Notes under the pieces: generated by a model
Told to the model about the DNA's origin: nothing
Database searches by the model: none
The model's input: the letters and a program-made list of their open reading frames with translations, nothing else
Translations under genes and position numbers: made by a program
Part shown: in pieces, positions 33,198 through 63,975 of the stretch
Numbering within the stretch: position 1 is the stretch's first letter
Layout of the letters: each line of letters starts with the position of its first letter
From: Deltaproteobacteria bacterium
GTDB taxonomy: Bacteria; Desulfobacterota; Binatia; Binatales; Binataceae
Direction: 5' to 3'
NCBI GenBank assembly: GCA_021780755.1
Contig: JAJXYF010000005.1
Span: forward strand, 105,031-169,030
DNA length: 64,000 nt

Positions 33198-33310
33198 GCG
33201 TATGAGGTCTTTTGCAAACGCCTCATACGCGCCCACGAAAGGTCTCGACGACGCCATCCGCATGACCGATTTACGCTTATTCATCGTGGGAAGCCTGAAA
33301 CTATAGTTCC
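33198..33310 (+). repeat. TGAAACC-hairpin repeat family, copy A (long form; the central hairpin is deleted, leaving GGGAAGCCTGAAAC fused to TATAGTTCC)
   Basis: It shares the modules CCCACGAAAGGTCTC, CCATCCGCATGACC and TTATTCATCGTGGGAAG with copies B, C, D and l. It is preceded by a perfect 10-bp hairpin GCGTATGAGG (33198-33207) / CCTCATACGC (33221-33230). Confidence 0.75.
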
Positions 33311-33349
33311 GCGCTCCCCGACAACCCTCTCGTGCGCTTCCCCCGCGTC

Positions 33350-34405
33350 CTACGCGCGCGCTTCCAGCACCATGTTGAACGGTGTCTCGGCCGCGCGCCG
33401 TATCCGCGTGAAGCCGCCGGCTCCAATCACCTCGCGCAGTTTCTTCTCGCCCGCCTGTGCACCCAGCGCCGCCTGCCCCTCCTGCGCCAATGAGGCCGGC
33501 GTGCAGATCATCGTCGAAGCCGCATAGATGAACCGCCCGATCGGATTCATATTCTCCGCGACTGAGTCGCCCGCCATCGGCTCCACGATCATCCAGGTGC
33601 CGTCGGGCGTCAGGCTCTCGCGCACATGCGCGGCGGCGCCCGTCGGGTCACCCATGTCGTGCAGGCAGTCGAAAAACGCCACCAGGTCGTAGGTGCCCGG
33701 ATAGTCCTTGGCGACGGCGCGCGCGAAACGCGTATTGCCGCTGACGCCCGCCTCATGCGCCTCCGCGATCGCGTGATCGAGCGACGGCTGATGATAATCG
33801 AAGCCAACGAACTGCGACTTCGGAAAGGCCTTCGCCATCAGAATCGTGGACGCGCCGCGGCCGCAGCCGACGTCGGCGACCCGCGCGCCGCGTTCGAGCT
33901 TTTCGCGCACGCCCTCGAGCGCCGGCAGCCATTCGTTGACCAGATGGGCCGCGTAGCCCGGCCGGAAAAACCGCTCGGTGCCGCGAAACAGCGCCATGTC
34001 ATGTTCGTGCCAGCCGACCCCCGTGCCGCTCCGAAACGCGTCGGTGATCTTGTGTTCATCGCGATGGATCGCGCCGACGATTTCAAACGCTCCCAACACG
34101 CACGCCGGGCTGCCCTCGACCGCCAGCGCCATCCGCTGTTCGGGCGTCATCGAGTAGCGCCCCGCCGCCGCGTCGTATTCGACGTAGCCGGCGGCTGCCT
34201 GCTGCGCCAGCCATTCGCGCACATAGCGTTCCGCGGTTGCCGTCCGCTTTGCGAGTTCCACCGGCGTGACCGGCCCGGCCTCGGCGATCGCGCGATACAA
34301 TCCAAGTTTGTCGCCAACCATCACGAGCGCTGCGCCCGCCGCCGCGCCCAAGTCCCCAACCAGCTTTCCAACCAATGCGTTCAGCTTTGCTTCATCGATT
34401 TCCAT
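33350..34405 (-). CDS. Class I SAM-dependent methyltransferase with an N-terminal winged-helix-like domain
   Basis: Motif I VADVGCGRGAST and DLVAFFDCLHDMGDP. The ATG at 34405 is preceded by GGAGGA. The track extension to 34507 runs into repeat copy B. Confidence 0.8.
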   Translation of the reverse strand: MEIDEAKLNALVGKLVGDLGAAAGAALVMVGDKLGLYRAIAEAGPVTPVELAKRTATAERYVREWLAQQAAAGYVEYDAAAGRYSMTPEQRMALAVEGSPACVLGAFEIVGAIHRDEHKITDAFRSGTGVGWHEHDMALFRGTERFFRPGYAAHLVNEWLPALEGVREKLERGARVADVGCGRGASTILMAKAFPKSQFVGFDYHQPSLDHAIAEAHEAGVSGNTRFARAVAKDYPGTYDLVAFFDCLHDMGDPTGAAAHVRESLTPDGTWMIVEPMAGDSVAENMNPIGRFIYAASTMICTPASLAQEGQAALGAQAGEKKLREVIGAGGFTRIRRAAETPFNMVLEARA

Positions 34406-34459
34406 TTGTGAAATCCTCCGTATCTGAAATCGCGTCCGGCTCCTGCTGCGAGCTCGTTC

Positions 34460-34612
34460 CGGATGCGCCGAACCACCTCTCGCGTAGGCGTCCGCGAAAG
34501 GTCTCACCGACGTGATCCGTATGATCTACCTACCTCTATTCATTGTGGGAAGTTAAGTCCTATAATTGAGGTCAAGACCGTTGGGCTGCTTGAAACCTTT
34601 CAATGGTTTCAC
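34460..34612 (+). repeat. TGAAACC-hairpin repeat family, copy B (long form with about 37-nt insertion between GGGAAG and the hairpin)
   Basis: Modules CCGCGAAAGGTCTC, GTGATCCGTATGATC, CTCTATTCATTGTGGGAAG, then TGAAACC (34591-34597) / GGTTTCA (34605-34611). The HxlR stop codon (34609-34611) lies inside the hairpin. Confidence 0.8.
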
Positions 34613-35136
34613 CCCTCTTTTTGCTCAACGCCCGCTGCGCTCTCTTCCTGTTTCCCGCGCGTGCTCAGGCGTGCCCGCGTCGCGGCTCCGGCGCCCGGCC
34701 CCGGCACCATCATCACATCCGACGGCCCCAACGGCCGGCCGTCGCCGCTGACCACGCTGATCTCCGCGATTTCGCGGCCCGACTCGCGATCGACCACCCG
34801 CACCGGCTCGCGATCGGAACCCGCCACCCAACGGTCGCCCCATTGCATCAGCGCCATCAACACCGGGAAGAAGTCGCGGCCCTTGTCGGTGAGCCGGTAC
34901 TCCAGGCGCCGGCCGCCGTCGGGCGCCGCGATGCGCTCCAGGATGCCGCGGGCGACCAGCTTCTTGAGCCGTGCCGACAGGATGTTGCGCGCGATCCCCA
35001 GATTCTGCTGGAAGTCGTGAAAGCGCCGCGTGCCGAGAAACGCTTCGCGCATAATCAGCATCGTCCACCATTCGCCGACCAGGTCGAGTGCCCGCGCGAT
35101 CGAGCAGTTCATCCGTGCGAAGGTCTTGCGCCGCAT
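34609..35136 (-). CDS. HxlR family transcriptional regulator
   Basis: CSIARALDLVGEWWTMLIMREAFLGTRRFHDFQQNLGIARNILSARLKKLV is the canonical HxlR winged helix. Confidence 0.85.
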   Translation of the reverse strand: MRRKTFARMNCSIARALDLVGEWWTMLIMREAFLGTRRFHDFQQNLGIARNILSARLKKLVARGILERIAAPDGGRRLEYRLTDKGRDFFPVLMALMQWGDRWVAGSDREPVRVVDRESGREIAEISVVSGDGRPLGPSDVMMVPGPGAGAATRARLSTRGKQEESAAGVEQKEG

Positions 35137-35213
35137 ACGATCACGCTATTGCAAAGCGGTTGCATTGGGCAACTCAAGCGCTCCGCCCGGTGACGCCGAT
35201 CTGGTGATTGGGG

Positions 35214-35328
35214 CCACCTTGCGTACGCGGCCACGAAAGCTCTCATCATCGCGATCCGTATGACCTATCTGGGTCTATTTCATTGTGGGAAGGTTGAAAC
35301 CTCTCAAAGGTTTCAATGACCCTTCCCC
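35214..35328 (+). repeat. TGAAACC-hairpin repeat family, copy C (long form, complete extended hairpin)
   Basis: Modules CCACGAAAGCTCTC, GCGATCCGTATGACC and TCTATTTCATTGTGGGAAGG. TTGAAACCT (35294-35302) pairs with AGGTTTCAA (35308-35316). Outer GGGAAGG (35287-35293) pairs with CCTTCCC (35321-35327) across a TGAC bulge. Confidence 0.85.
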
Positions 35329-35499
35329 TTCTCCGGCGCCGCTCTTCCGCGGATGCGGTTGCCACCCGCCCGCGAACCGCCAGTTGCATCAAGAAACCAT
35401 TTTCGCTATTGCTCGATCGATGGCGAGTTGCATCATGAAACTACGATATTGGCGGCCCGCTCGCGCCCGCTATTGGGCGATGCGGGCGTCTTTGCGCTA

Positions 35500-35712
35500 A
35501 CCTGTCGCGCAATCGCCGCCGAACTCGCCCGTGGCGCGACCCACGCGCGCGCGGGGGCCCAGCGCCTGATGTACGGCGGGATGACCGAGTCGCTCGAAAC
35601 CCAAAACGAAAACGAAATCCGCAACATCTACAAGATGGCCGCGACCGACGACACCCGCGAAGCGATCAATGCCTTCAACGAAAAGCGCGCACCCGTCTTC
35701 AAGGGCCGCTGA
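35500..35712 (+). pseudogene. C-terminal remnant of an enoyl-CoA hydratase/crotonase gene
   Basis: The frame ending at 35712 encodes ...AIAAELARGATHARAGAQRLMYGGMTESLETQNENEIRNIYKMAATDDTREAINAFNEKRAPVFKGR. This is the typical last ~70 residues of crotonases (compare the full-length paralog ending EGVRAFLEKRKPLFKGA at 39702). No N-terminal catalytic part is present, and repeat copy C lies directly upstream. Confidence 0.6.
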
Positions 35713-35735
35713 CGCGCGACCCGGAGCCGCAACCC

Positions 35736-36332
35736 ATGGCGAAACAAATCGAGTTCCTCTTCGACTACGGCAGCCCCTTCAGCTACCTCGCGAACATCCA
35801 GTTGCCGGGCTTTGCCAAACGCAACGGCGCCGCCGTCATCTATCGTCCGATCCTGCTCGGCGCCGTGCTCAAGGCGACCGGCAACTCCTCCCCGATGGCG
35901 GTGCCGGCCAAGGCCCGCTATTTCGCCGTCGATATGCGCCGATGGGCCGCGCGCTATGGCGTGATGCTCAAGCTTAATCCGCATCCGTTCATGGCCAACA
36001 CGCTCTCCCTCATGCGCGGGGCCGTTGCGGCGCAGCGCCTCGGCGTCTTCGGCGCCTACCACGACGCCATCTATCGCGCCGCCTGGGCCGAGGGCCTCGA
36101 CTTAGGTGAAAAGGCGGTGCTCGCCGGCGTCCTCCAACGCGCGGGCGTCAACGTCACCGATCTGATCCCCGCTCGCGAACGCCAGGACGTCAAGGACGAG
36201 TTGCGCCGCAATACGGAAGACGCGGTCGCGCGCGGGGCATTCGGCGCACCGACCTTTTTCGTTGGCGACGAGATGTTCTGGGGCAACGACCGCTTTGACT
36301 TCGTCGAGGAGGCGCTGCGCCGCCAGCCCTGA
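35736..36332 (+). CDS. 2-hydroxychromene-2-carboxylate isomerase family protein (DsbA-like fold)
   Basis: IEFLFDYGSPFSYLA ... GAFGAPTFFVGDEMFWGNDRFDFVEEAL is typical of the HCCA isomerase family. Confidence 0.8.
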   Translation: MAKQIEFLFDYGSPFSYLANIQLPGFAKRNGAAVIYRPILLGAVLKATGNSSPMAVPAKARYFAVDMRRWAARYGVMLKLNPHPFMANTLSLMRGAVAAQRLGVFGAYHDAIYRAAWAEGLDLGEKAVLAGVLQRAGVNVTDLIPARERQDVKDELRRNTEDAVARGAFGAPTFFVGDEMFWGNDRFDFVEEALRRQP

Positions 36333-36354
36333 CTGATAGGCAGTACGGAGGATT

Positions 36355-36505
36355 CGTGAAACCTTTGCAAGGTTCGCTGATTCATTCCTTCTCTTCCGAC
36401 ACCTTGCGACGCGCCCACCAAAGGTCTCATGTACGCGATCTGTATGACCCACGTATGTCTAATCACTGTAGAAGTTTTAAAACCTTTCAAAGGTTTCAAG
36501 AATCT
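36355..36505 (+). repeat. TGAAACC-hairpin repeat family, copy D (long form with an extra upstream partial hairpin)
   Basis: Upstream hairpin GTGAAACCTT (36356-36365) / AAGGTTC. Modules CCCACCAAAGGTCTC, GCGATCTGTATGACC and TCTAATCACTGTAGAAG. Terminal hairpin AAACCTTTCAAAGGTTTCAAG (about 36478-36500). Confidence 0.8.
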
Positions 36506-36545
36506 CCCTCTTCAGCCTTATTGAATCTTTAAAGGAGCATCTCCC

Positions 36546-37265
36546 ATGTCCACCACGCAGAAGCCCGTCGCGGTAGTCGTCGGCGTAGGCCCCGGACTCG
36601 GCACCGCGTTGGTCCGCCGCTTTGCCGCCGAGTACACGGTCGCGATCGTCGCCCGCAACGCTGACTACCTGGCCAAGGTCGCCGGCGAAATCGCCGCGAG
36701 CGGCGGACGCGCCCATCCGGTGCCCGCCAACACCGCCGACGAGAGCGCGATCGTCACCGCCTTCGAGACCGTCCGCCACGATCTCGGCGATCCCGAGGTA
36801 CTGATCTACAACGCCGCGATGCGCCCCTTTGGCCGTCTGATGGAGACCAAGCCGAGCACCTTCGAGAACACCTGGCGCGTCAATGCGTTCGGCGCGTTCC
36901 TATGCTCGCAACAGGTGGTGCCCGCGATGGTCACGGCGGGGCGCGGCACGATCCTTTTTACCGGCGCCACCGCGGGCATCAAACCCTACCCGACCTCGGC
37001 CGCGTTCGGCCCGGCCAAGTTCGCGATGCGCGGGTTGGCGCAGGTCATGGCGCGCGACCTCCAGCCGCAGGGAATCCACGTCGCCTACATCAACGTTGAC
37101 GGCGCGATCGACATGCCTTTTATCCGCCAACGTTTCCCCGAGTTGAAGGCGGAGGACATGCTCAAACCCGCCGCGATCGCCGACGCCTACTGGTTCGTCG
37201 CGCATCAGGATCGCAGCGCCTGGACGCACGAACTCGACGTGCGCCCCTTCAAGGAAAAGTTTTAG
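36546..37265 (+). CDS. SDR family oxidoreductase
   Basis: N-terminal dinucleotide-binding VVGVGPGLGTALVRRFA and a Y-x3-K region (AAFGPAKFAMRGL). AAAGGAG lies 8 nt upstream of the ATG. Confidence 0.8.
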   Translation: MSTTQKPVAVVVGVGPGLGTALVRRFAAEYTVAIVARNADYLAKVAGEIAASGGRAHPVPANTADESAIVTAFETVRHDLGDPEVLIYNAAMRPFGRLMETKPSTFENTWRVNAFGAFLCSQQVVPAMVTAGRGTILFTGATAGIKPYPTSAAFGPAKFAMRGLAQVMARDLQPQGIHVAYINVDGAIDMPFIRQRFPELKAEDMLKPAAIADAYWFVAHQDRSAWTHELDVRPFKEKF

Positions 37266-37334
37266 CGTGCGATTCGTTCGACCCTCTTGTCATTCTTGTA
37301 TGTAGAATCTGGCAGATCGACGAGATTATCGCGT

Positions 37335-37478
37335 GGGGCGAAGGGCGCTCTGCGCGAGCGATTGAAGGCCCATCGCAAGGCCGGCGCGAACCACTTCTTC
37401 ATCACGCCGCTCAACCCGGGTAATGGACTCACGCCGGGGATGGGCGCGGTGGAAGCGCTCGCGCCCGCACGCGGCTGA
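37335..37478 (+). pseudogene. Possible C-terminal remnant of a luciferase-like (LLM) oxidoreductase gene
   Basis: The frame encodes ...GALRERLKAHRKAGANHFFITPLNPGNG..., resembling the C-terminal 'xxRLxAyxxAGvdHlil.P' end of LLM/F420-dependent oxidoreductases. There is no upstream LLM barrel sequence. Confidence 0.35.
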
Positions 37479-37520
37479 CGGCGACGCGTTAGTCGAATTT
37501 GCACGAAGCGTGCGCGCGGG

Positions 37521-38339
37521 TCAGTTGCGCAGCCAACTCGTGATGCGCTGGTGGATACCAATGGGATCGGCGGCGGGATAGTTGTGGCCGGCCTCCGGAA
37601 TCATGAAAAGTTCCGCGTTGCGAACGCGCTCCTTGATCAACGCGGCGTTGCCTGGCGGCACGATGATGTCCTTGCCGCCGTGCACCACCATCACCGGACA
37701 TTCGATCTGATGCAGACGATCCAGGGTGTCGAATTCCGCCAGGCCCGCGGCAAGTTTGTCCGGGGTCTCCGGTGGAGTCGGCGGCGCCAGTGTCATCCCG
37801 AGGCGCATGAACTGCTTGAGTTCGGGATGCGCCGCGATGAATTCCGGCGGATAGAGCAGCGGCAGTACCATCTCGATGCCCGCGTCGGGATCCTGCGACA
37901 TCAGCTTGGAGCCGGCGACCAGCGCATGCAGAACCTCGTCGGCGGGCCGCACCGCATCGGCGCCGCCCGGCGTGGTGCATCCGAGCACCATCATCGCGAC
38001 CTGTTCGGGATGCCTCAGGGCGAGTTCCTGCGCGATCATCCCGCCCATCGAGATGCCGTACACGCGGACGCGTCGGAGGCCGAGTGCGCGGATCAGGTTC
38101 GAGGCATCCTCGGCCATGGTGGCGACGGTGTAGGCGCCGGCCGGCTTATCGGACAGGCCGGTACCGCGATTATCGAAGTAGATGCTTTGGAAGCCGGAGA
38201 GCAGAGGGAGCATCGGGAGCCACGCGGCACCGGGCATCGCAAAGCCCATGATCAGCAGCAGCGGATCGCCTTGGCCGGCTATCTCGTAGTTTATGTTGAC
38301 GCCGTTGGAACTGAATTGAGGCATTGCCGCTGCACCCAT
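37521..38339 (-). CDS. Alpha/beta hydrolase
   Basis: Nucleophile elbow GISMGGMIAQELAL, HGGKD and a C-terminal GHNY catalytic His region. Confidence 0.8.
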   Translation of the reverse strand: MGAAAMPQFSSNGVNINYEIAGQGDPLLLIMGFAMPGAAWLPMLPLLSGFQSIYFDNRGTGLSDKPAGAYTVATMAEDASNLIRALGLRRVRVYGISMGGMIAQELALRHPEQVAMMVLGCTTPGGADAVRPADEVLHALVAGSKLMSQDPDAGIEMVLPLLYPPEFIAAHPELKQFMRLGMTLAPPTPPETPDKLAAGLAEFDTLDRLHQIECPVMVVHGGKDIIVPPGNAALIKERVRNAELFMIPEAGHNYPAADPIGIHQRITSWLRN

Positions 38340-38496
38340 TCACTCGCGAATTGTTACGGGAATATTACACGGGCACGCGCCCGGAATCATCCATCCGGCC
38401 GCAACGGAAACGGAGCGCGCAGTTCGGGACGACCTGCGCCCGCGCACTGCGCGAACTCACCCGTATGGACAGCAGGGGGGCTAAGCGCGGGGCGAG

Positions 38497-39539: not shown

Positions 39540-39659
39540 TTATTTCTTTTGTTCCATCGGCCCGCCGCAACACTTCAAGCCGCCGGCGCCGCCTTTGGTG
39601 ACGATCACCTGCGAACCGCATTTGCCGCAGATGTAAACTTTTCCGAGCTGGTTAGCCAT
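39540..39659 (-). CDS. Desulforedoxin-like mini-protein (Desulfoferrodoxin N-terminal FeS4-type domain), 39 aa; absent from the ORF track because of its size
   Basis: My manual reverse translation gives MANQLGKVYICGKCGSQVIVTKGGAGGLKCCGGPMEQKK. This has the C-x2-C ... CC spacing and the Y-x-C-x2-CG-x-x-V ... CCG-x-x-M pattern of desulforedoxin. AGGAG lies about 13 nt upstream of the ATG. Confidence 0.7.
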   Translation of the reverse strand: MANQLGKVYICGKCGSQVIVTKGGAGGLKCCGGPMEQKK

Positions 39660-42926: not shown

Positions 42927-43025
42927 CGGAGTCAAAAAGGTAAAAATCGTCAAGCTGAAAAGGAATCTAATCCGAATCGGGGAGAATACAAGTTGGCGGG
43001 GTCGCGGGGTATGGGAGATGAGGAA

Positions 43026-43115
43026 GTTGTCAAGGAACTTAGAGGATTTTGGTTTTCAGGAAACTGAAACCTTGTGAGGTTTCAGAAGGCTATAAGTTTT
43101 GAGCTCCTGGATAAC
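43026..43115 (+). repeat. TGAAACC-hairpin repeat family, copy f (short form)
   Basis: GTTGTCAAGGAACTTAG ... TTTTCAGGAAACTGAAACCTTGTGAGGTTTCAGAAGGCTATAAGTTTTGAGCTCC ... ATAAC, in the intergenic region downstream of the amidohydrolase gene. Confidence 0.8.
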
Positions 43116-43139
43116 TGGATTGTTCGCGGAGCGTTATCG

Positions 43140-44729: not shown

Positions 44730-44806
44730 GTTGAGGAACTAGCTTTTCGGGGAACTGAAACCTCGATGAGGTGTTTCAGAAAATTACAGTTTTGAGTTCC
44801 CTTAAC
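44730..44806 (+). mobile_element. TGAAACC-hairpin repeat family, copy g: 77-bp MITE-like unit with terminal inverted repeats and a 5-bp direct flanking repeat
   Basis: Left end GTTGAGGAACT versus the reverse complement of the right end GTTAAGGGAACT (1 mismatch, 1 indel). Central hairpin CTGAAACCTC-GAT-GAGGTGTTTCAG. AAGGC occurs immediately before (44725-44729) and immediately after (44807-44811). Confidence 0.7.
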
Positions 44807-44832
44807 AAGGCTCCCCCGCTCCCGTCGATTGG

Positions 44833-44976
44833 CTAATCGGATGACGGGAGGGCTTTGGCCTCCTTGAGTTTCATATCGTGGTCGCAACATTCGAAGGTGC
44901 CCGTGCCGGCCTTGTTGCAGAGCACTTCGGTGCCGCAGGTATCGCACATGTAGCGTTTGCCCAAAACGTTAGCCAT
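44833..44976 (-). CDS. Desulforedoxin-like mini-protein, 47 aa (second paralog)
   Basis: MANVLGKRYMCDTCGTEVLCNKAGTGTFECCDHDMKLKEAKALPSSD has the same Cys pattern as the 39540..39659 product. GAGGAG lies upstream of the ATG at 44976. The longer track start at 45051 is unsupported. Confidence 0.7.
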   Translation of the reverse strand: MANVLGKRYMCDTCGTEVLCNKAGTGTFECCDHDMKLKEAKALPSSD

Positions 44977-46260: not shown

Positions 46261-46366
46261 AGGCTAACAGATGAAGAAGAGGCGCGACAACCACGGTCGT
46301 GCGGCGGTGGGAATCGCGCGTTCCAGTGGGCGGCGGGTTTGGGTTATACTTTTGGCCGGGATAACG

Positions 46367-48346
46367 ATGCGAGTGCATTTCGTGATGGGCGCGCGGAGTA
46401 GATTTGCGGCGAGCTCACGGCGTCGGCCGAGGGGAATCGCATGCGCGGCGTTCGCGTCCGCGATGCTGCTCGCGATAACGCTCGCGACGACTCCATTCGC
46501 CGGTGTGGCGCGCGCGGAGGACGCGGCGGCGATCGCGTCCCGAATCAGCGACGGCGCGTTCGCGATGCTCAACGGCCTGCATGGGCATGACGGGGCCGCG
46601 TCCAATGCGGCGATGGGCGCGGTGGCGATTTTCGCGGGCGACGCCCAGGCGCTCAGCCGCACCCTGGCGGCCGGCGATCGCGACGGCGCGCCGAGTGCGA
46701 TGGCCACGCTCGAATCCGATCGCGGCGCGGTGGATGGCGCGGTGGCGGCGACCCCGGCGCTGTTCAACGCGGCCGACTGGAACCGGATCAAGGCCGAGAT
46801 GACGACGCTGGCGAAGCAGATCGGGCCGGCGAGTCGGGCGCCGCGCGCACGTGCCGCCACGGCAGCATCGACGACGGCAGCCTCATCGGCGGCGCGGCCG
46901 GACACGGCCGCGCCAACTACTACGACGGCCGTATCGATGATGGCGGCGACCAGCGCCGCACCGCCGCGGGTGGTGGTCGAATCGCGCACGGCGGAAGGCG
47001 CGGGGGTCCATCTCAAGGGCTATATCGAGGGGAGCGATCTGAAGCGCGGCGGAATTTACGCGGGTGCGCGTGAAGTGCGCGCGTTCCAGATCAGTCGGGT
47101 CGTGGGAGAGCAGCGAATCAATTTCGATATCGGGGTCGAGCGTCCCGCGCCCGGCGCGACGCTGCGGATCTATGACGGTCACGGGCGGATGGCGCAGGCG
47201 CCGGTCGCCGATGCGACCGTGATGGCCGCGGCGGCGCCGGCGATTGACGCTGGACCGGGCGGATCGGAGCCGTCGGACGCCCCCGCAATACCCCAACTGC
47301 CCCGGTCCGCATCCGCGCCCGCAGCGCCTTCGGTCGAGAGCGGAGTGGAAGTGTTCCGCAGCAACCCGGACGGCGATAGCGGCGGCGTCAACACGGCCGA
47401 GATCCCGAGTCACGGGAAGCCGCTTAAGTCGCCCAGCAAACGCCATACGATGAGCAGTCATCTCGGCAACGTGCAGATCACGATCACGGCGGAGAACTTG
47501 ATCGATCCGGTGTCGTCAACCTACCAGTTGGCCGGTCAGATTCAGGGACACGGACTTTCGCGGGCGGGAATTTACGACGGCCGCCGGCTGGTGAGCCCGA
47601 TCGCGATCGAATTCGGTTCGGACGTGACGAGGTTCGATAAGCAATTCTCGGCGGCCGATGGCGGCGCGATCACGATTCGCGCGTATGGAGTCGGCGACCA
47701 ATACGTCGAGAGTTCGGTCGATTTATCGAATGCCGCGGTGGCGTCGGCGGGCGGCGCGGCCGGAACGTCGATGATGCCGGGCGCGGTGCTGGGCGCGCCG
47801 ATGGGCGGCGCGATCGCGGGCGGCGATTCGGGAATCCTGGTCCAGATCCAGGCGGTGGGGCCGGTCACACGCAACTTGTATATCGTTTCCGGCGTGATTT
47901 CGGGCGCCCATCTGTCGGGTGCCGGCCTTTATCAGAATGGGATGCTGGTGCAGCGAATCGCCGTGAATGGCGGCGGCATCGGCGCCATGATCGGCGCGTT
48001 GATACCGGGCGCGTCGCACAACGTGAATTTCAATGTGCGGTTTAATCCGCAGGCGGGGCCGGCCACGATTCGCGCGTTCGATGCGAGCGGCGGCTATAAC
48101 GAGCAGCCGATCGTGATCGCGGGGACGAGCCCGTACGGCGCCGGCACCAATCCCTTTACGATGAATCCCTACGGCGCGAGCCCCTACGGTTACAATCCGT
48201 ACGGGAATCCCTATGGTTCAGATGGTTCGGGAATGTCGCCCTATCGCACTAATCCATACGCGGGCGGCACGCTCGGCGCGCCCCCGATAAATCCCTACGT
48301 CGCGCCCACCAATCCGTTCGGCTCACCGCCCGCGTCCTCGTGGTGA
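46367..48346 (+). CDS. Hypothetical secreted protein: signal peptide, Ala-rich region, three internal ~110-aa repeats, NPYG-rich tail
   Basis: The ATG at 46367 gives MRVHFVMGARSRF...AMLLAITLATTPFAGVARA. Internal repeats are anchored by GYIEGSDLKRGGIYAGAREV, GQIQGHGLSRAGIYDGRRLV and GVISGAHLSGAGLYQNGMLV, each ending with (T)(I/L)R(I/A)(Y/F)D/G. The C-terminus is SPYGAGTNPFTMNPYGASPYGYNPYGNPYG... Confidence 0.6.
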   Translation: MRVHFVMGARSRFAASSRRRPRGIACAAFASAMLLAITLATTPFAGVARAEDAAAIASRISDGAFAMLNGLHGHDGAASNAAMGAVAIFAGDAQALSRTLAAGDRDGAPSAMATLESDRGAVDGAVAATPALFNAADWNRIKAEMTTLAKQIGPASRAPRARAATAASTTAASSAARPDTAAPTTTTAVSMMAATSAAPPRVVVESRTAEGAGVHLKGYIEGSDLKRGGIYAGAREVRAFQISRVVGEQRINFDIGVERPAPGATLRIYDGHGRMAQAPVADATVMAAAAPAIDAGPGGSEPSDAPAIPQLPRSASAPAAPSVESGVEVFRSNPDGDSGGVNTAEIPSHGKPLKSPSKRHTMSSHLGNVQITITAENLIDPVSSTYQLAGQIQGHGLSRAGIYDGRRLVSPIAIEFGSDVTRFDKQFSAADGGAITIRAYGVGDQYVESSVDLSNAAVASAGGAAGTSMMPGAVLGAPMGGAIAGGDSGILVQIQAVGPVTRNLYIVSGVISGAHLSGAGLYQNGMLVQRIAVNGGGIGAMIGALIPGASHNVNFNVRFNPQAGPATIRAFDASGGYNEQPIVIAGTSPYGAGTNPFTMNPYGASPYGYNPYGNPYGSDGSGMSPYRTNPYAGGTLGAPPINPYVAPTNPFGSPPASSW

Positions 48347-48361: not shown

Positions 48362-48563
48362 CCGTCATCATGATCGGCGTTCGCGACGCTCCGATAGCTG
48401 GTAGAGTCCTTCGCGAACGCGGGAGCGAGCAATCTAAAAAGGGAGAGGCAAGCTACCGCGAGAACCGCGAAGGTCTTCGCCTGCCCACTCCTCTCTTAGT
48501 CAAAAGGGAAGCCTGAAACCTCAATGAGGTTTCAGAAAGATATTCAGTCCGGATTCCTCAACA
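48362..48563 (+). repeat. TGAAACC-hairpin repeat family, copy h (about 200-bp long form)
   Basis: It aligns by eye over its full length with the reverse complement of 50623..50857. Identical blocks are CATGATCGG, AATCTAAAAAGGG, GAGGCAA, GAACCGCGAAGGTCTTCGC and CAAAAGGGAAG. The hairpin CTGAAACCTC-AAT-GAGGTTTCAG (48513-48535) is followed by ...TTCCTCAAC. Confidence 0.85.
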
Positions 48564-48684
48564 GATGTCCCCTGTATTCCGCTATCCCCACGTATTCCGC
48601 GCGGGGGCGCTAGGTGGCTTTCAAGATCTGAAGGCATAGGTTACACTTTAGTGTTTACGTTATTACGATGAGAGTGAATGGAAG

Positions 48685-50614: not shown

Positions 50615-50622
50615 GGGGAGTT

Positions 50623-50857
50623 GTTGAGGATCTCAAAAACTTATAGCTTCCTGAAACCTCACTCAGGTTTCAGACTTCCCTTTTGTAAAGCACGGATATA
50701 TTAGCTCGCTTTTTCGATTATCGCAGGTACTGGCACGCGAAGACCTTCGCGGTTCCCGAAGCCAGTTTGCCTCCCCCTTTTTAGATTACTGGCGCCCCTC
50801 GTTGCTCAGGACTTTGCTGCCTGGCGGAGCATCGCGAGCACCGATCATGTTGACGTT
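50623..50857 (-). repeat. TGAAACC-hairpin repeat family, copy i (about 235-bp long form, inverted relative to copy h)
   Basis: The plus strand reads GTTGAGGATCTCAAAAACTTATAGCTTCCTGAAACCTCACTCAGGTTTCAGACTTCCCTTTTG..., followed by the reverse complement of the h upstream modules. It starts 9 nt after the methyltransferase stop. Confidence 0.85.
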
Positions 50858-50919
50858 TTTACCTGGCGAAGCCCCGCGTCCCTGCCGGGAATCGAGCAAC
50901 GCGAGCGTAGCGCACCGTC

Positions 50920-50977
50920 GGCATGGAATGCCGTGAAACCTGAGTGAGGTTTCAGGAAACTAAAAGTTTTGTGTTCC
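50920..50977 (+). repeat. TGAAACC-hairpin repeat family, copy j (short form, GGCATG..ATGCC left-arm variant)
   Basis: GGCATGGAATGCC-GTGAAACCTGAGTGAGGTTTCAGGAAACTAAAAGTTTTGTGTTCC. Confidence 0.8.
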
Positions 50978-51025
50978 TTCGCCGCCGCATTACTGGCGGA
51001 GCCGCGCGCCCTCTGGTGCGCGCGG

Positions 51026-51802: not shown

Positions 51803-51818
51803 TGGTATAGGATGCGAG

Positions 51819-51879
51819 GTTGAGGAACTCAAAATTGTTATTTAATGAAACCCTACAAGGTTTCAGGCATTTTCATGCC
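51819..51879 (-). repeat. TGAAACC-hairpin repeat family, copy k (short form, same left-arm variant as j, inverted)
   Basis: The plus strand reads GTTGAGGAACTCAAAATTGTTATTTAATGAAACCCTACAAGGTTTCAGGCATTTTCATGCC. The reverse complement aligns with copy j. Confidence 0.8.
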
Positions 51880-51923
51880 GCCGATGCGCTATGCTCGCGT
51901 TGCTCCGCCGGAGGCGGTCGAGG

Positions 51924-58033: not shown

Positions 58034-58060
58034 CGCGAATTCCTCAAATAGTCGAATAGC

Positions 58061-58195
58061 GCAAAACTTATAGTTTAGGAAAACTGAAACCGAGGTTTCA
58101 GACTTCCCATTGGTCACGGATGCGGGCTTAGCCCTGTGAAGAGCTCGTCATAATTAGCTGCGCACGTCGCTCGAGCCGACGGCGAGCATCGCACC
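58061..58195 (-). repeat. TGAAACC-hairpin repeat family, copy l (long form with internal deletions)
   Basis: The reverse complement reads GGTGCGATGCTCGCC ... GCATCCGTGACCAATGGGAAGTCTGAAACCTCGGTTTCAGTTTTCCTAAACTATAAGTTTTGC. It shares the GGTGC..GATGCTC.GCC module with copy i, the CATCCG.TGACC module with copies A-D, and the core with all copies. Confidence 0.75.
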
Positions 58196-58576: not shown

Positions 58577-58620
58577 AGCTCAAGTGTCTCCGATAAAAAT
58601 GGTAGGTGCGCGGTGGGGCG

Positions 58621-58938: not shown

Positions 58939-59135
58939 CTTAAAGTCCGAATCCCTTTAAGTATCGGACGGATCGGCGCATGTCAATCCGTGCTGGCCCG
59001 CTCAAGTATGGTATCGATCGCGTGGCGCGGGAGAAATATTCCGTCGGCCCGGTCCTTGGCCGGCTTGGTGAATTCGGTCCCGGCATGGCAAGATCACAAC
59101 GGTGGTCGCGCTCGATTTTCGCCTGAGGAGTTCTC

Positions 59136-60323
59136 GTGGAACCGGTAGATTTATCATATAGCGGCAGTTTTGCGGCGGGATTTCCGCACGAGTTTTTCAA
59201 CTGGCTCCGTCAAAACGAGCCGGTCTGGTGGCACCAGCCGACCGAACATACGCCTAACGGTATCGGCTTCTGGGTAGTGAGCCGGCACGCGGACGTCGTT
59301 GCGATTTTCAAGGACGCCGAGACCTATTCGTCGGAACTGGGCGGCACGCAAATCTACGACGGCAAGGGCATGGGCTACCAGTTGAACCAGACCGACGACC
59401 CGAAACATCGGCGGTTGCGGGCGCTGGTCAACAAGGGTTTCACCCCGCGGACGATCGGGCGGCTGGAGGACGATTTGCGGGCGCGCGCCAAACGGATCCT
59501 CGACGAGGTCCCCAGCGGCGAGACCTTCAACTTCGTGCCGGCGGTGGCGCGCGAACTGCCGCTGCAGGCTATCTGCGCGGTGCTCGGCGTGCCGCAGGAG
59601 GATCGCGCGGAGCTGGGCGATATCGTCGATCTCGCGATCGGCGCGGGCGGCGGCGCCACCATGTCGCCGCAGCACCTCAAGCGCCTCAGCGCTTATGCGG
59701 ACGCACTGGTCGAGCGCAAACGCCACCATCCGGCCGACGACATCTTGTCGATTATCGTCCACGCGCAACTCGACGACGGCTCGCCGCAGCTCAGCAACAT
59801 GGAGCTGCGGGCGTTCTTCAACCTGCTGTTCCCGGCCGGCGCCGAGACCACCCGCAGCGCGATCGCGGGCGGGATGCTGGCGCTGATCGAAAACCCCGGC
59901 GAGCTCGGGCGGCTGCGCGGAAATCCCGATCTGATGAAGACCGCCGGCGAAGAGATCGTCCGCTGGACTTCGCCGTCGGTTTACAAGCGGCGCACCACCA
60001 CGCGCGACGTCGAGTTGCGCGGGCGTGCGATCCGGCAGGGGCAGAAGGTGACGGTGTGGGAGATGTCGGCGAATCGCGACGAGGAGGTCTTCACCGATCC
60101 GTTTCGCTTCGATATCGCGCGCGACCCGAACTTCCACGTCGGCTTCGGGCTGGGCGCTCATTTCTGCCTCGGCGCGAACCTTGCCCGGCTGGAACTGAAA
60201 GTCATGTTCGAGGAGCTGCTCGGCCGCTTTGCGCGCTTCGAAGTCACCGGGCCGTTGGCGTGGACCAACAACAATCGTCTCTTGGGCCTGACCCATCTGC
60301 CGCTCAAGGCCTTCCCGAAGTAG
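59136..60323 (+). CDS. Cytochrome P450
   Basis: Heme-binding loop FGLGAHFCLGANLARLE, I-helix AGAETT, and EIVRW (ExxR). The GTG start is preceded by GAGGAG. Confidence 0.9.
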   Translation: MEPVDLSYSGSFAAGFPHEFFNWLRQNEPVWWHQPTEHTPNGIGFWVVSRHADVVAIFKDAETYSSELGGTQIYDGKGMGYQLNQTDDPKHRRLRALVNKGFTPRTIGRLEDDLRARAKRILDEVPSGETFNFVPAVARELPLQAICAVLGVPQEDRAELGDIVDLAIGAGGGATMSPQHLKRLSAYADALVERKRHHPADDILSIIVHAQLDDGSPQLSNMELRAFFNLLFPAGAETTRSAIAGGMLALIENPGELGRLRGNPDLMKTAGEEIVRWTSPSVYKRRTTTRDVELRGRAIRQGQKVTVWEMSANRDEEVFTDPFRFDIARDPNFHVGFGLGAHFCLGANLARLELKVMFEELLGRFARFEVTGPLAWTNNNRLLGLTHLPLKAFPK

Positions 60324-60339
60324 CGATCAAGGAAATGAA

Positions 60340-60373
60340 GAGGGGCGCAGCGGGATCGCCCGCTTCGCCCCTC
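60340..60373. terminator. GC-rich hairpin between convergent P450 and sufT-like genes (candidate bidirectional terminator)
   Basis: GAGGGGCGCAGCGGG (60340-60354) pairs with CCCGCTTCGCCCCTC (60359-60373) with one mismatch. Confidence 0.5.
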
Positions 60374-60405
60374 TCGATACGCAGTCGATTCGTCAGTCCA
60401 GACGC

Positions 60406-60942
60406 TTAGTCGATGCCGAGCTTTTCCCGCGCCTCGGGCGCGATCATCTGCGGATTCCACGGCGGATCCCACACCAGATCGACGTTCGCCTCCGACACGC
60501 CCGCCAGCGTCATCAGCTTGCTCTTGGCATCGAACGCGATCGACGCGCCCATCCCGCAGCCCTGCGCCGTCAACGTCATCTTGACGTCAACCTTGCTGGT
60601 GCCGTCGGACTGCGGCGTCACTTCCATCCCGTAAACCAGTCCGAGGTCAACGATATTAACCGGAATCTCGGGGTCATAGCAGGTCTTGAGCTGCTCCCAT
60701 ACCATCGCTTCCAGGTCGCCACTGGTGGCCGCGGTAGCGCCGGCCTCCGCCGCTGATTTGCCGATCGCGTCGGCGTCCTTGCCTGCGATGCGATAGAGGC
60801 CGCTATAGGCGGGCACTTGCAGGGTGAAGGTGCCGCCGAGCGATTGAGTAATGAAGGCCTCGATGCCTTTTTCGAGCGTTATCGGAGTGCCGGCCGGAAT
60901 TTGGACGGCTTCACATTCCCGTTGGAGTTCGACTCGTTCCAT
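60406..60942 (-). CDS. SufT-like Fe-S cluster assembly protein (DUF59/MIP18 domain with N-terminal extension)
   Basis: C-terminal DUF59 pattern VWEQLKTCYDPEIPVNIVDLGLVYGMEV ... LTAQGCGMG. The size (~178 aa) matches SufT. Confidence 0.6.
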   Translation of the reverse strand: MERVELQRECEAVQIPAGTPITLEKGIEAFITQSLGGTFTLQVPAYSGLYRIAGKDADAIGKSAAEAGATAATSGDLEAMVWEQLKTCYDPEIPVNIVDLGLVYGMEVTPQSDGTSKVDVKMTLTAQGCGMGASIAFDAKSKLMTLAGVSEANVDLVWDPPWNPQMIAPEAREKLGID

Positions 60943-61108
60943 CGTTGGGTTCCTCAGTTTCGATGGGTCAATTGTAAGTCGTCGAGAGCACCTGCGCCAG
61001 CGCAGGCCAGTTGGCGCTATGTTGCGGCGGCCCCATGCGGTCTGTTAGAGCGAAGAGAAGTCGAAAACGCGATACGGTCTCAGGAAACGCGAAGTTGAGG
61101 ATATCAAG

Positions 61109-63208
61109 ATGGGTGGCGGGGCGACGGGCGGGGAAATCGACGGCGGTCTCGGCGACGACGTTACGTATCGCGACGCGGCCGCCGCGGTAAGCGGCGAAAC
61201 GTCGAATATGGATGACGAGGCCGCCGCGCTCGCGAGCCCGTCCGCGTTCGCGTTCGACCGGATGCCGCGGGCGAGTGCGAAGGAAAAGCTCCACGCGTTT
61301 TTAGAAGAACGTCCGGCGGGGGCCGACGCCGCCGAACTGGTCGGACTGCTGTTCAAGGGCGCCGGTTCCGATCCCGAGTTGGGTGCGCGTCTGATTCACG
61401 GTCTGATCGGCGGCGATCCGAATTTCGTCCTCGATGAGGCGGCCGGGATGTGGTCGCTGCGCAAGAGCGTCGCCCTGCGGGTACCGCTCGATGAGGCGCG
61501 CTTCGTGGTGGTCGATCTGGAAACCACGGGCGGGCGCGCGGCGGCCGGGTCGATAATCGAGATCGGCGCGTGCCGGATGGAAGGCGGTCGAATCACGGCG
61601 ACGTTTGAAACGCTGGTGCGGCCGCGGATGGCGATTCCGCGGTTCATCACGGGGCTCACTTCGATCACCAACGAGATGGTGCGTGACGCGCCGCCGATCG
61701 AGCATGCGCTGCCGGCGTTTCGCGAATTTCTCGGCGACGCCGTGATGGTCGCGCATAACGCCCCGTTCGACCATTCGTTTCTCGACTTCGAGTTTCGGCG
61801 ACTGTTCGGAATCGGCATGCGGAATCCGGTGCTGTGTACGCTGCGGCTTTCGCGCCGTCTGCTGCCCTCGCTCAAGCGCCGCCGCCTCGACGCGCTGGCC
61901 GAACATTTCGGGCTGTCCACCGCGGGACGCCATCGCGGGCTGGGCGACGCGCGGATGGCCGCCGAGCTGCTTTCGATTTTTATCGAGATGGCGGCGAAGA
62001 TGGGTCTCAACCGGCTCGACCGGTTGATCGACTGGAATCATCGGGGCGCGGCGGGCCGGCGTCTCGAGCGGCACGTGCCGCCCGACGCGATCGCGGCGCT
62101 GCCGCGCACGCCCGGCGTGTATCTCTTGCGCAATGAGCGCGGCGACCTGCTCTATATCGGCAAGGCGGCGCGGCTGCGCGATCGCGTCGCCTCGTACTTC
62201 AACGGCGGCGCGGGGCGCAATGCGAAAACGGCGGAGCTGGTCGGCCACGTGCATGCGATCGAAACGCGGCCGGCGCGCTCGGCGCTCGACGCGGCGCTGC
62301 TCGAGGCGCGGATGATTCGCGAACTCAAGCCGCCATACAACCGGATGTTGAAATCGGCGGCGCCCGCATTTTTCGTCAAACTCGACCTCTCGGATCCGTT
62401 TCCGCGGCTGCGGATCGGTCAGAAGCTCAGCGCGCGCGTGGGCGTGATGAATCTGGGCCCGTTTATCGGACGGCACAACCTGGACCATGCGACGCGCGGG
62501 CTCGCGCGACTGTTGGGCTTGCGCACGTGCACGGGCAAGCTCGCGCCCGACGAGGATTTTTCGCCGTGCGTTTACGGGCAGATGGGCCATTGCGCGGCGC
62601 CGTGCAATTTTACCATCGACGAGGACGCGTACAACCAGCGGGTGGGGCGGGCGGTGTCTTTTTTGCGCGGCCGCGGCGGTCCGCTGATGGGTGAGCTGGC
62701 GCGGGCGCGCGAGCAGGCGGCCGCCGCGATGCGCTTCGAGGAGGCGCGCCGCTTCCATCGCGAACTCGAAGCGCTCGCCGCGTTCACCGAGCGCGTCAGC
62801 CGGCTGAGCCGCGTCGTGACCGAGAACAATCTCATCATTGTAATCGCGCCGCGGTCGGCGGGATCGGAAAGCGCGCCGGCGCCGCCGGCGAATCCGGTCG
62901 CGTACGTGATCCTGAGCGGGCGGCTCGCGCTCACGCGTGAGATCGATTCGCTCGGCGCGGCGCATGCGGTGAGCACATTCGTGGCGGAGAATTACGATCG
63001 CTATCGGATGCGCGCGGTCGCTCGCGGCGAACTCGAGGAGATGACGATCGTCGCTCGTTGGCTGCGCGAACGCGACACCGCCGACGGGCGGCTGATCTAT
63101 CTGAACGACGCGATCGTCGAGCCCGCCGCGATAGTCAGTGCGGCGGGAATCACGGCAGCGGAAGTCGGCGATGCCGTGCCGCTCGCGGTGGCGACCGCGA
63201 CCGATTAG
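61109..63208 (+). CDS. DEDD 3'-5' exonuclease (DnaQ/epsilon-like) fused to a GIY-YIG (UvrC/Cho-like) nuclease domain
   Basis: Exo motifs VVDLETTG, VAHNAPFDHSFL and HRGLGDARM, then GIY-YIG PGVYLLRNERGDLLYIGKAARLRDRVASY ... ALLEARMIRELKPPYN. The start is uncertain (ATG at 61109 or 61208). Confidence 0.8.
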   Translation: MGGGATGGEIDGGLGDDVTYRDAAAAVSGETSNMDDEAAALASPSAFAFDRMPRASAKEKLHAFLEERPAGADAAELVGLLFKGAGSDPELGARLIHGLIGGDPNFVLDEAAGMWSLRKSVALRVPLDEARFVVVDLETTGGRAAAGSIIEIGACRMEGGRITATFETLVRPRMAIPRFITGLTSITNEMVRDAPPIEHALPAFREFLGDAVMVAHNAPFDHSFLDFEFRRLFGIGMRNPVLCTLRLSRRLLPSLKRRRLDALAEHFGLSTAGRHRGLGDARMAAELLSIFIEMAAKMGLNRLDRLIDWNHRGAAGRRLERHVPPDAIAALPRTPGVYLLRNERGDLLYIGKAARLRDRVASYFNGGAGRNAKTAELVGHVHAIETRPARSALDAALLEARMIRELKPPYNRMLKSAAPAFFVKLDLSDPFPRLRIGQKLSARVGVMNLGPFIGRHNLDHATRGLARLLGLRTCTGKLAPDEDFSPCVYGQMGHCAAPCNFTIDEDAYNQRVGRAVSFLRGRGGPLMGELARAREQAAAAMRFEEARRFHRELEALAAFTERVSRLSRVVTENNLIIVIAPRSAGSESAPAPPANPVAYVILSGRLALTREIDSLGAAHAVSTFVAENYDRYRMRAVARGELEEMTIVARWLRERDTADGRLIYLNDAIVEPAAIVSAAGITAAEVGDAVPLAVATATD

Positions 63209-63245
63209 ATTAGTCAGTCACCCAAACGACCGGAGAAAACCGCCC

Positions 63246-63848
63246 ATGTACTTCGATCCGCGCGACAAGGAATACCCGCTCAAACATGACCCGCTGACCT
63301 CGCTGGTGGTGCCCCGACCGATCGGATGGATCTCGACGATCAACCGCGCCGGCGTGGTGAATCTCGCGCCGTACAGCTTTTTCAACGCGGTCGCGAGCCG
63401 CCCGCCGTTCGTAATGTTCTCGAGCGCGGGCCGCAAACATTCGCAGACCAACGCCGAGGAGAGCGGCGAATTCGTGCATAGCCTGACGGTCTGGGACCTG
63501 CGTGAAGAGATGAATATCACGTCCGCCGACGTCGGCCCGGACGTGAGCGAGCCGGAACTCGCGCACCTGGAAATGGCGCCGTCGGTCGCGGTGAAACCGC
63601 CGCGCGTTGCGCGCTCGCCGGTCGCGTTCGAATGCAAGTACGTCAAGACGGTCGATCTGCCGGGTGCCGGCGGCAAGCCCAATCCCTACTCGATCGTGAT
63701 CGGCGAAGTGGTCGGCATTTATATCTCCGACGAGGTCATCGTGGATGGCAAGGTCGATCTGTCGGTGCGGCGGCCGATCGCGCGCCTCGGCGGGCTGGAT
63801 CAGTACACCTCAGTCGATGAGATCTTCAAGCTGCGTCGCCCCGGCTGA
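63246..63848 (+). CDS. Flavin reductase family protein (FMN-binding split barrel)
   Basis: VVPRPIGWISTINRAGVVNLAPYSFFNAV is typical. The ATG at 63246 is preferred because the track start at 63138 overlaps the upstream gene. Confidence 0.8.
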   Translation: MYFDPRDKEYPLKHDPLTSLVVPRPIGWISTINRAGVVNLAPYSFFNAVASRPPFVMFSSAGRKHSQTNAEESGEFVHSLTVWDLREEMNITSADVGPDVSEPELAHLEMAPSVAVKPPRVARSPVAFECKYVKTVDLPGAGGKPNPYSIVIGEVVGIYISDEVIVDGKVDLSVRRPIARLGGLDQYTSVDEIFKLRRPG

Positions 63849-63915
63849 GGCGGCGAAGTCGGTCAAAGTCGTTAATGATGATGAGGCTTTCTCAGGGCGC
63901 GGCCCGCATCTGATT

Positions 63916-63975
63916 AAAAGGGAAGTCTGAAACCTTCATCAGGTTTCAGGAAACTAAGGTTTTGTGTTCCGCAAC
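63916..63975 (+). repeat. TGAAACC-hairpin repeat family, copy m (short form)
   Basis: AAAAGGGAAGTCTGAAACCTTCATCAGGTTTCAGGAAACTAAGGTTTTGTGTTCCGCAAC, near the right edge of the window. Confidence 0.8.

Follow-up and report, generated by a model that had tools for sequence, protein, structure and literature searches.

Mosaic palindromic intergenic repeats in a group of uncultured soil bacteria, probably Binataceae

Mosaic palindromic repeats that lie between genes in alternating orientation are well known from the repetitive extragenic palindrome (REP), bacterial interspersed mosaic element (BIME), REPIN, Neisseria intergenic mosaic element (NIME) and miniature inverted-repeat transposable element (MITE) systems. 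The REPINs are mobilised by the REP-associated tyrosine transposase (RAYT), an HUH Y1 transposase. Here, we describe a repeat family of this familiar kind from a 64,000-nt stretch of DNA (hereafter the window) of a member of the Binataceae. The stretch belongs to contig JAJXYF010000005.1, and the family is represented by twelve copies, designated A–D and f–m, between 33 and 64 kb. Within Rfam, IMG/VR, PLSDB and the searchable literature, the family is previously undescribed, and it occurs in one group of uncultured soil bacteria, probably the Binataceae. Binatota is a phylum known from metagenomes only, and within the searched open-access full text of PubMed Central and bioRxiv this is the first repeat family reported for it. 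We consider it rather probable that the copies are lineage-specific, non-coding mosaic palindromic repeats of the REP/BIME (REPIN) or MITE type, which would be spread in trans by an enzyme that reads their hairpin.

Anatomy of the units and their copies in the window

The aligned copies revealed a unit of ~90-250 nt that consists of a variable head, a core, a spacer and an AT-rich tail, with the family consensus GGGAAGTCTGAAACCTCGTGAGGTTTCAGAAAGAAACTATAAGTTTTGAGTTCCTCAACAACT. The core is GGGAAGT-CTGAAACCT-loop-AGGTTTCAG, in which nine stem pairs were identical in >95% of 121 copies; the tenth pair was C-G in 74, T-A in 12, T·G in 14, G·G in 16 and C·A in 1. The loops are variable, 4-5 nt long and mostly end in TG, and the spacer of 3-15 nt that follows the hairpin is A-rich or carries an extra TTTCCTGAAAA. 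The tail, CTATAAGTTTTGAGTTCCTCAAC[A/C]AC(T), holds a second small palindrome (TTGAG-N3-CTCAA), and its end is written …TTCCTCAACAAC or …GTTTTGAGTTCCTCAACAAC. Across 94 aligned tails, conservation stopped sharply after …CAAC[A/C]A[C]T, and the information content fell to background within a few bases, save for a mild C/T bias over ~12 nt. The head is built of interchangeable short modules, such as CCCGAGCATCGCGAGCGTCAA, into which a GC hairpin, CAGGGCGAAGCCCGCATC or GGCATGGAATGCC, may be inserted. The commonest head is …GGACTTAGCCGNCTACCCGAGCATCGCGAGCGTCAATCNATGA, the insertion TTTTNCAGGGCGAAGCCCGCATCTT is present in about a third of the copies, GGGAAGT is exchanged for GGCCCACCGTCGGCATGGAATGCCG in some (j and k, for example), and the long forms h and i begin with the head motif inverted. 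The hairpin is AT-rich in a genome of 63% GC. GGGAAGT and the stem are thus nearly invariant while the loops, spacers and heads vary, a pattern that fits recognition by a conserved protein, and we infer by analogy that a trans-acting enzyme may recognise the hairpin together with GGGAAGT.

An nhmmer profile built from f–m retrieved eight strong cores in the window, with E values of 1e-14 to 7e-21, and matched A–D weakly and partially. Together with inspection, the search bore out all twelve places and orientations proposed in the initial annotation. The profile gave nothing credible before 33 kb, and separate searches of 1-33 kb for the core, the tail, the head motif GAGCATCGCGAGC, the GC hairpin, the GGCATG…ATGCC hairpin and both blocks of A–D all came back empty, so that the first 33 kb are indeed free of the family, as had been claimed. 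Six exact matches to the palindrome TGAAACCT-N2-9-AGGTTTCA lie in the window, as against none in 100 shuffles. Hand counts from the gene map showed that between 33 and 64 kb the copies fill ~1.6 of ~4.5 kb of intergenic DNA (about a third) and occupy 11 of the ~17 spacers longer than 150 nt. As a separate observation, the GC skew of the window is strongly negative at 30-38 kb and positive at 38-56 kb, with a cumulative minimum near 38 kb, close to the onset of the repeats; the shift may mark a replication landmark or simply reflect the strand of the genes.

Copy A (33172-33327, +) has its head module, GAGCATCGCGAGC, at 33185-33197, together with the blocks CACGAAAGGTCTC and GCCATCCGCATGACC. 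Its right hairpin arm is deleted and GGGAAGCCTGAAAC is joined straight to the tail TATAGTTCCGCGCTCCCCGACAAC; the junction between CTGAAAC and TATAGTTCCGCGCTCC..CGACAAC makes visible the fusion of left arm to tail that had been described for this copy. In copy B (34460-34612, +), the blocks CGCGAAAGGTCTC and GTGATCCGTATGATC are accompanied by GGGAAGT, the module AGGTCAAGACCGTTGGGCTGCT is inserted, and the hairpin, TTGAAACCTTTCAATGGTTTCA, is weakened. This hairpin overlaps the stop codon of the HxlR gene, and we located the codon, TCA on the + strand at 34609-34611, inside the right arm GGTTTCA, in line with the earlier description. Copies C (35214-35328, +) and D (36355-36505, +) both have the A–D blocks and lack a tail; C combines GGGAAGG with the hairpin TTGAAACCT-CTCAA-AGGTTTCAA, whose closing pair is T-A instead of C-G, and D has a small extra hairpin GTGAAACCTTTGCAAGGTTCGC and a degenerate main hairpin TTAAAACCTTTCAAAGGTTTCAA. 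The four copies share GGGAAG, the hairpin or its left arm only, and the blocks CGCGAAAGGTCTC and GATCCGTATGACC, which were found again beside cores in other genomes. Judged by sequence, A–D are true but partial relatives of f–m.

Copy f (43022-43121, +; nhmmer core 43050-43121) consists of a reverse tail GTTGTCAAGGAACT.., one shared hairpin CTGAAACCT-TGTG-AGGTTTCAG and a forward tail. Copy g (44744-44815, +; core 44740-44815) is likewise a two-tailed palindrome, GTTGAGGAACT…hairpin…AGTTCCCTTAAC. Both had been taken for simple short forms, a view that the order tail, hairpin, tail does not sustain. The long form h (48362-48572, +; core 48497-48572) lies upstream of the conserved efp leader. Its head module, GATCGGCGTTCGCGACGCTCCGAT, is inverted, and its inner stretch, which includes CCGCGAAGGTCTTCGC, is specific to the species; GGGAAGC, the hairpin and the tail follow. 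Copy i (50620-50857, -; core 50690-50613), also a long form, abuts with its tail the stop codon of a gene for an RMKL-like methyltransferase and stands head-to-head with copy j (50894-50992, +; core 50915-50992), in which the head GAGCAACGCGAGC and the mini-hairpin GGCATGGAATGCC are followed by the main hairpin and a degenerate tail. Copy k (51810-51905, -; core 51883-51810) is built like j and fills the spacer upstream of the gene for a 268-aa methyltransferase (MT268). The GGCATG-N-ATGCC replacement reported for j and k recurs as the same module in other genomes. Copy l (58045-58195, -; core 58119-58045) sits between rpmA and a luciferase-like monooxygenase gene. The GC hairpin CAGGGCTAAGCCCGCATC is part of its head, the loop of its main hairpin is shortened, and GGGAAGT and the tail are both present. 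Copy m (63893-63985, +; core 63911-63985) combines a head of the GC-hairpin type, CAGGGCGCGGCCCGCATC, with GGGAAGT and the hairpin, and its tail reads GTTTTGTGTTCCGCAAC.

Range, placement and turnover of the family

One genome per species was scanned for TGAAACCT-N3-7-AGGTTTCAGRA, which yielded at least 106 loci, and at least 116 strong profile copies were present in at least 66 of the 106 pattern loci listed. All strong copies listed belong to Candidatus Binataceae, Binatus or 'uncultured delta proteobacterium' MFD metagenome-assembled genomes (MAGs), at least 10 MAGs in number. With the window and the metagenome loci added, the family amounts to at least 141 copies in at least 73 loci. Pattern matches in Streptococcus, Bacteroidales and other taxa were considered as family members and rejected as chance, because they showed no similarity outside the pattern. 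The density is 12 copies per 31 kb in the window, and in the anchored loci ~1 extra copy per 10 kb. A protein comparison revealed no orthologous genes in common between the window and the Binataceae repeat loci, and it is the shared repeats that point to the Binataceae as the most likely source of the window. Copy identity was 79% within a genome and 77% between genomes.

Rfam gave 0 matches at the gathering score across the window and 0 matches at E<=1 over 33.1-36.6 kb and 48.3-52.0 kb. We found no viral match in IMG/VR and no plasmid match in PLSDB, on which ground a phage or plasmid origin was rejected. The 15-mer GGGAAGTCTGAAACC is absent from the searchable literature, and the Binatota papers there make no mention of repeats; the initial description of the family as unrecognised therefore held within these resources. 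The repeats can serve as a lineage marker for binning, and they are a likely cause of assembly breaks and mis-called small open reading frames (ORFs).

Every copy, in the window and at the other loci, is intergenic, as had been stated for the twelve. The tail always points outward, against the stop or start codon of the neighbouring gene, and the spacers between are short. It faces the stop codon of an opposite-strand gene in 64 cases, 50 of them within 65 nt, and the start of a co-oriented gene in 51, and spacers between convergent genes hold 41% of the copies as against ~25% expected. Copies less than 400 nt apart form head-to-head pairs without exception (27/27), never tandem or tail-to-tail ones, and such pairs carry inverted ends of ~80 nt. 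The partners are mostly of different subtypes, …GGTTTCAATGAAATA… being paired with …AGAAAGAAAC… or …AGTTTCCTGAAAAAC…. Identical loops, which we considered as a sign of a single inverted duplication, occurred in 3/29 pairs against 5% expected, and this difference was not significant. About 87 of the 141 copies are single units. The flanking genes are ordinary core genes, namely efp, rsfS, nadD, proAB, obg, rplU-rpmA, methyltransferases and enoyl-CoA hydratases. We also asked whether genes between copies are cargo, as the arrangement j-MT268-k might imply, and rejected this because MT268 keeps its position in relatives that lack the copies.

Relatives were collected by a metagenome scan with the RMKL-like methyltransferase, to which contigs encoding an identical EF-P were added, and the block Amidohydrolase-GcvT-X691-efp-RMKL-MT268-rsfS-nadD was compared. 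The convergent RMKL/MT268 spacer is empty and 45-65 nt long in L113, L116-L119, L142, L154, L155 and L159 (84-93.5% protein identity). In this spacer, L123 has one compact unit, L115 and L145 have a longer form, and the window has the two units i and j (411 nt). Upstream of efp, we found a + unit in the window, a - unit in L112, L153 and L114, a head-to-head pair in L115, a pair with mutated stems in L154, and nothing in L116, L155 and L159. The efp leader, …GAAGGCATAGGTTAAACTTT.GTGTTTAC…GAGAGTGAA.GGAAGATG, is conserved throughout, whether the repeat is present or not. Here we also observed that ~60 nt upstream of efp (window 48573-48684; …GAAGGCATAGGTTA.ACTTT.GTGTTTAC…CGATTGAGAGTGAA.GGAAGATG) are kept down to 52% RMKL identity (L112-L159), and these probably represent the gene's own promoter or leader. 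The f and g sites are configured differently in each of the three closest relatives, the g site holding a full head-to-head pair in L153 and a decayed unit in L154. Stems are conserved in same-site copies of five relatives while the loops and tails differ.

Copies are many in the window, L114 and L115, whereas L116 (across 19.9 kb of this region), L118 and every relative at <=68% identity lack both the copies and any other dispersed repeat. Since the copies are abundant in some close relatives and absent from others, the family has expanded within a single sub-clade, where rearrangement and loss continue. The initial annotation had named a non-autonomous mobile element among the candidate roles and proposed that relatives be compared for empty sites. 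Empty spacers and presence/absence polymorphism were found, orthologous sites differ in whether they hold a unit and in its orientation, and entire syntenic stretches of near relatives are without copies, all of which speaks for that role. The empty site in L154 shares with the window the flank …GGGTTGAGGGGA, which sets the end of copy i immediately before GTTGTTGAGGA, at window 50620; the place given for this copy was right, and its outer end had to be moved to this position.

L154 (an ERZ1761150 contig; RMKL 93.5%, EF-P 100%) carries degenerate copies at 353-600, 2147-2255, 5713-6001 and 8752-8817. Three of its four occupied sites are degenerate, with mutated stems or the tail alone, where the copies in the window are intact, which looks like decay after a presumed loss of the copying activity. 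In L113, at ~1100-1160, we observed AGTTGTCGAGTTCTTCGACAACT, a 23-nt palindrome of two tail tips only, which looks like the scar of a fully collapsed head-to-head pair. Downstream of RMKL in L153/L156/L158, MT268-rsfS-nadD is replaced, directly after the repeat, by a HAMP-guanylate cyclase gene and others, and this break of synteny coincides with the element. L131 (6.5-8.8 kb) and L133 (8.3-8.7 kb), both at ~59% RMKL identity, lack the family and contain a few unrelated local repeats between gcvT and efp, which may be a different repeat family.

Proposed mobilisation and rival explanations

We propose that an enzyme whose gene lies elsewhere in the genome acts in trans to copy the units into new spacers. 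An HUH/RAYT-like single-strand transposase is the most likely candidate, with some other transposase or a recombinase as the alternative. Since the hairpin equals its own reverse complement, the two hairpins of a head-to-head pair are direct as well as inverted repeats. Recombination or slippage between them would delete the interior and leave a reverse tail, one hairpin and a forward tail. Copies f and g have the structure of a head-to-head pair minus its interior, and we read copy f as such a collapsed pair. A deletion between the mini-palindromes of the tails (TTGAG-N3-CTCAA) would leave a scar of the tail tips only, as in L113. The junctions of copy A and of the form 'left arm + inverted head' also break at the hairpin, and, as deductions from structure, the odd forms may have arisen by slippage, by homologous recombination or through a site-specific enzyme. 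Where the copying activity was lost, copies would decay, and any effect on the host would be secondary, for example weak termination by the reversed hairpin followed by ACTTCCCTTTT. Lineages with intact, decaying or no copies offer a contrast that can be used to find the spreading enzyme.

Several results weigh against this proposal. No transposase or RAYT was found in the window, between or beside the copies, or among the ORFs of sampled loci with low GC at third codon positions. A tblastn search of ~1.4 Mb of sampled loci with E. coli RayT returned spurious matches only, the sample being small and the search insensitive, and the wide head-to-head pairs of the sampled loci enclose no ORF for a mobilising enzyme. 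The proposed search for a cognate transposase or recombinase whose gene carries repeat ends was thus negative in the window and the sampled loci. No target-site duplication appeared at a consistent offset (0-30) or length (3-8) in 17 pairs; this absence argues against classical DDE-type MITEs and is expected for HUH-type elements. Apparent duplications, AAGGC flanking g and CTCAAC flanking the L123 unit, did not generalise. No pair of filled and empty sites was recent enough to display a clean insertion, and the one alignable pair differs by ~19 nt on the far side and shows no duplication. The genome-wide figure of one copy per 5-10 kb is only an extrapolation, and the strict tail-outward placement and the conservation of same-site stems could reflect a selected host function.

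We weighed other explanations against the same observations. The head-to-head pair could be a deletion derivative of a DDE transposon, that is, a classical MITE with terminal inverted repeats in which the ~80-nt tail-plus-hairpin ends are the termini and single units are broken halves. Pairs that always stand tails-out with long inverted ends, elements that are non-coding and shorter than 600 nt, the two-tailed short forms f and g, and variable presence at orthologous sites are all as such an origin would have it. We nevertheless hold it to be unlikely, as no target-site duplication exists at any offset, the pair ends are mostly of different subtypes with different loops, most copies are single units, and no autonomous element with these ends was seen in the sampled loci. 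Of similarly low probability, if anything slightly lower, is that the copies are selected host cis-elements, such as bidirectional terminators or stabilisers of mRNA ends, promoter-associated sites or sites bound by an abundant DNA-binding protein, which are multiplied and lost by ordinary recombination. This would account for tails that always face a gene at 0-65 nt from stop codons, for two arms invariant in primary sequence, and for the stems conserved at the same sites in five relatives, and the reversed hairpin with ACTTCCCTTT does pass a lenient terminator scan. However, only the reverse reading passed that scan: 4-5 of its 9-11 pairs are GC, and its tail is ACTTCCCTTT. Only 56% of the units are oriented towards the adjacent gene as this reading needs. 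An AT-rich stem with an interrupted U-tract makes a poor terminator, and the element is at best a weak terminator, in the reversed reading only. Orientation to the adjacent gene is near random (64 opposite vs 51 same), close relatives manage without copies at the same sites, efp keeps its own conserved leader with or without the repeat, and the copies decay in L154. We sought -35/-10 elements in both orientations and found no sigma-70-like promoter in any copy; the distance from the hairpin to TATAAG is 3-15 nt, and the 'TATAAG' positions are weakly conserved.

The 7-9 bp inverted arms around a 6-7 bp centre could also be the site of a site-specific recombinase, tyrosine/Xer-like or IS110-like, that drives the shuffling of modules. 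The geometry TGAAACC-T(N4-5)A-GGTTTCA fits a core-type site, the centre varies where the arms do not, many breakpoints fall at the hairpin (copy A, f, g, and left arm plus inverted head), neighbouring copies alternate in orientation, and an Xer-type recombinase is encoded in the window. The initial annotation had seen no transposase, RAYT or integrase there; the first two were indeed absent, but at 3855-4907 (+), directly after glnD, we found a 350-aa tyrosine recombinase of the XerC/XerD type with Phage_integrase and SAM-like N-terminal domains. It passes the NCBIfam cut-off for the XerC/D subfamily, adjoins no copy and is probably the housekeeping chromosome-dimer resolvase. As it looks like housekeeping XerC/D and lies 29 kb from the nearest copy, as breakpoints at palindromes are equally expected from replication slippage, as the conserved tail is left unexplained and as there is no similarity to dif, we regard this explanation as very unlikely. 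In a broader form of this explanation, the hairpin would serve a dedicated recombinase, either tyrosine/Xer-like or IS110-like or else a new HUH enzyme, as its core site across the genome, and intergenic modules would be actively shuffled, inverted and deleted between hundreds of sites. We give this form little credence, though marginally more than the last; if it were true, the lineage would possess an inbuilt means of rewiring the starts and ends of its genes. A structured RNA family in many copies, either of small RNAs, which had been among the candidate roles, or of cis-regulatory RNAs, has a stable local hairpin in its favour, and the tenth pair, T·G in 14 copies vs C·A in 1, gives a weak hint of forward-strand folding that may reflect shared descent. 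The main helix never varies and hence offers no covariation; no covariation measure exceeded that of shuffles, and the tail mini-helix is only 77% paired. Whole-unit folds were no better than shuffles (z-scores -0.7 to -1.7), Rfam gave no match at E<=1, no promoter or terminator frame surrounds the units, and they occur in both orientations to genes and are present or absent among relatives. The RNA explanation is largely refuted, and we assign it a very small probability. Smaller still is the probability that the repeats are words like the DNA uptake signals of Neisseria (DUS), which occur as inverted pairs downstream of genes. An invariant 9-mer in inverted pairs near gene ends recalls these signals, but in the window it never occurs alone or within a gene, and each time it is one part of a larger unit that also includes tail and head modules.

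Two further candidates were rejected. A small ORF running through the reversed element is broken in frame by indels between copies, and both sequence and arrangement spoke against a likeness to parS, the LexA box or dif.

Taken together, the genes of the window mark it as core chromosome, with dnaB, glnD, obg, proBA and rplU-rpmA. A prkA-DUF444-spoVR stress operon, yeaG-yeaH-ycgB-like, occupies 25175-29986 (-), and the gene at 61109-63208 (+) encodes a protein of 699 aa in which an RNase T/DnaQ-like exonuclease is fused to a GIY-YIG nuclease domain. Two tiny ORFs of 39 and 47 aa at 39540-39659 (-) and 44833-44976 (-) match the N-terminal desulfoferrodoxin (rubredoxin-like) domain, and each heads a catabolic cluster, with enoyl-CoA hydratase/acyl-CoA ligase and amidohydrolase, respectively. 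A 691-aa protein without Pfam or NCBIfam match (46271-48346, +) is syntenic upstream of efp in all relatives and evolves fast, with 31-77% identity where EF-P has 77-100%.

Comparison with described repeat systems

The attC sites of integrons are likewise imperfect palindromes by gene ends, and the terminal GTTGAGG / CCTCAAC of our repeats resembles GTTRRRY / RYYYAAC. However, the order of the motifs is reversed here (GTTGAGG…CCTCAAC, with GTT… at the outer 5' end), both an integron integrase and attI are lacking, and the only tyrosine recombinase of the window is of the XerC/D type. The flanked genes are core genes that stand in both orientations and persist without the element. An identity with attC was rejected for the wrong motif order and for the resident core genes at the flanks.

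Like MITEs, the repeats are small and non-coding, have inverted ends when paired, and show insertion polymorphism and lineage-specific bursts. They differ in that the pair ends are heterotypic, most copies are single asymmetric units and target-site duplications are absent; no parent insertion sequence is known for them and none was seen in the sampled loci. The lack of a consistent target-site duplication in the 17 pairs speaks against a classical MITE.

The NIME of Neisseria, in which RS units are flanked by dRS3 inverted repeats, and the Correia elements are also intergenic mosaics of interchangeable modules with a conserved short palindrome, frequently rearranged and variably present among strains. 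Their sequences are unrelated to ours. For dRS3, targeting by an IS110-type recombinase or phage is established, a link that the Binataceae repeats do not show, and Correia elements make TA duplications, which we did not see. dRS3/NIME and the pdif modules of Acinetobacter are the models for a shuffling of modules driven by a recombinase.

The REPINs of Pseudomonas and the REP/BIME of Enterobacteria share no sequence similarity with the family and have GTAG where GGGAAGT stands here. In addition, the Binataceae hairpin is AT-rich in GC-rich DNA, each unit bears a long, asymmetric tail (~40 nt) that contains a mini-palindrome, the partners lie 80-430 nt apart instead of forming one tight hairpin, and no RAYT has so far been found in the window and the ~1.4 Mb of sampled loci. 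A REP-type palindrome is present, with GGGAAGT, a 9-10-bp stem and a 4-5-nt loop, corresponding to the short (~20-40 nt) imperfect palindrome with a conserved 5' extension in REP/BIME and REPINs. In both, the copies are extragenic (at least 141 in the loci covered here) and enriched at gene 3' ends and between convergent genes, and neighbours are inverted, of different subtypes and joined by mosaic linkers, as in the BIME pattern of E. coli. Both lack target duplications, keep their consensus across species while the sites turn over, and decay in a lineage that has apparently lost the copying activity. The family opens no new principle, and its architecture parallels REP/BIME/REPIN biology.

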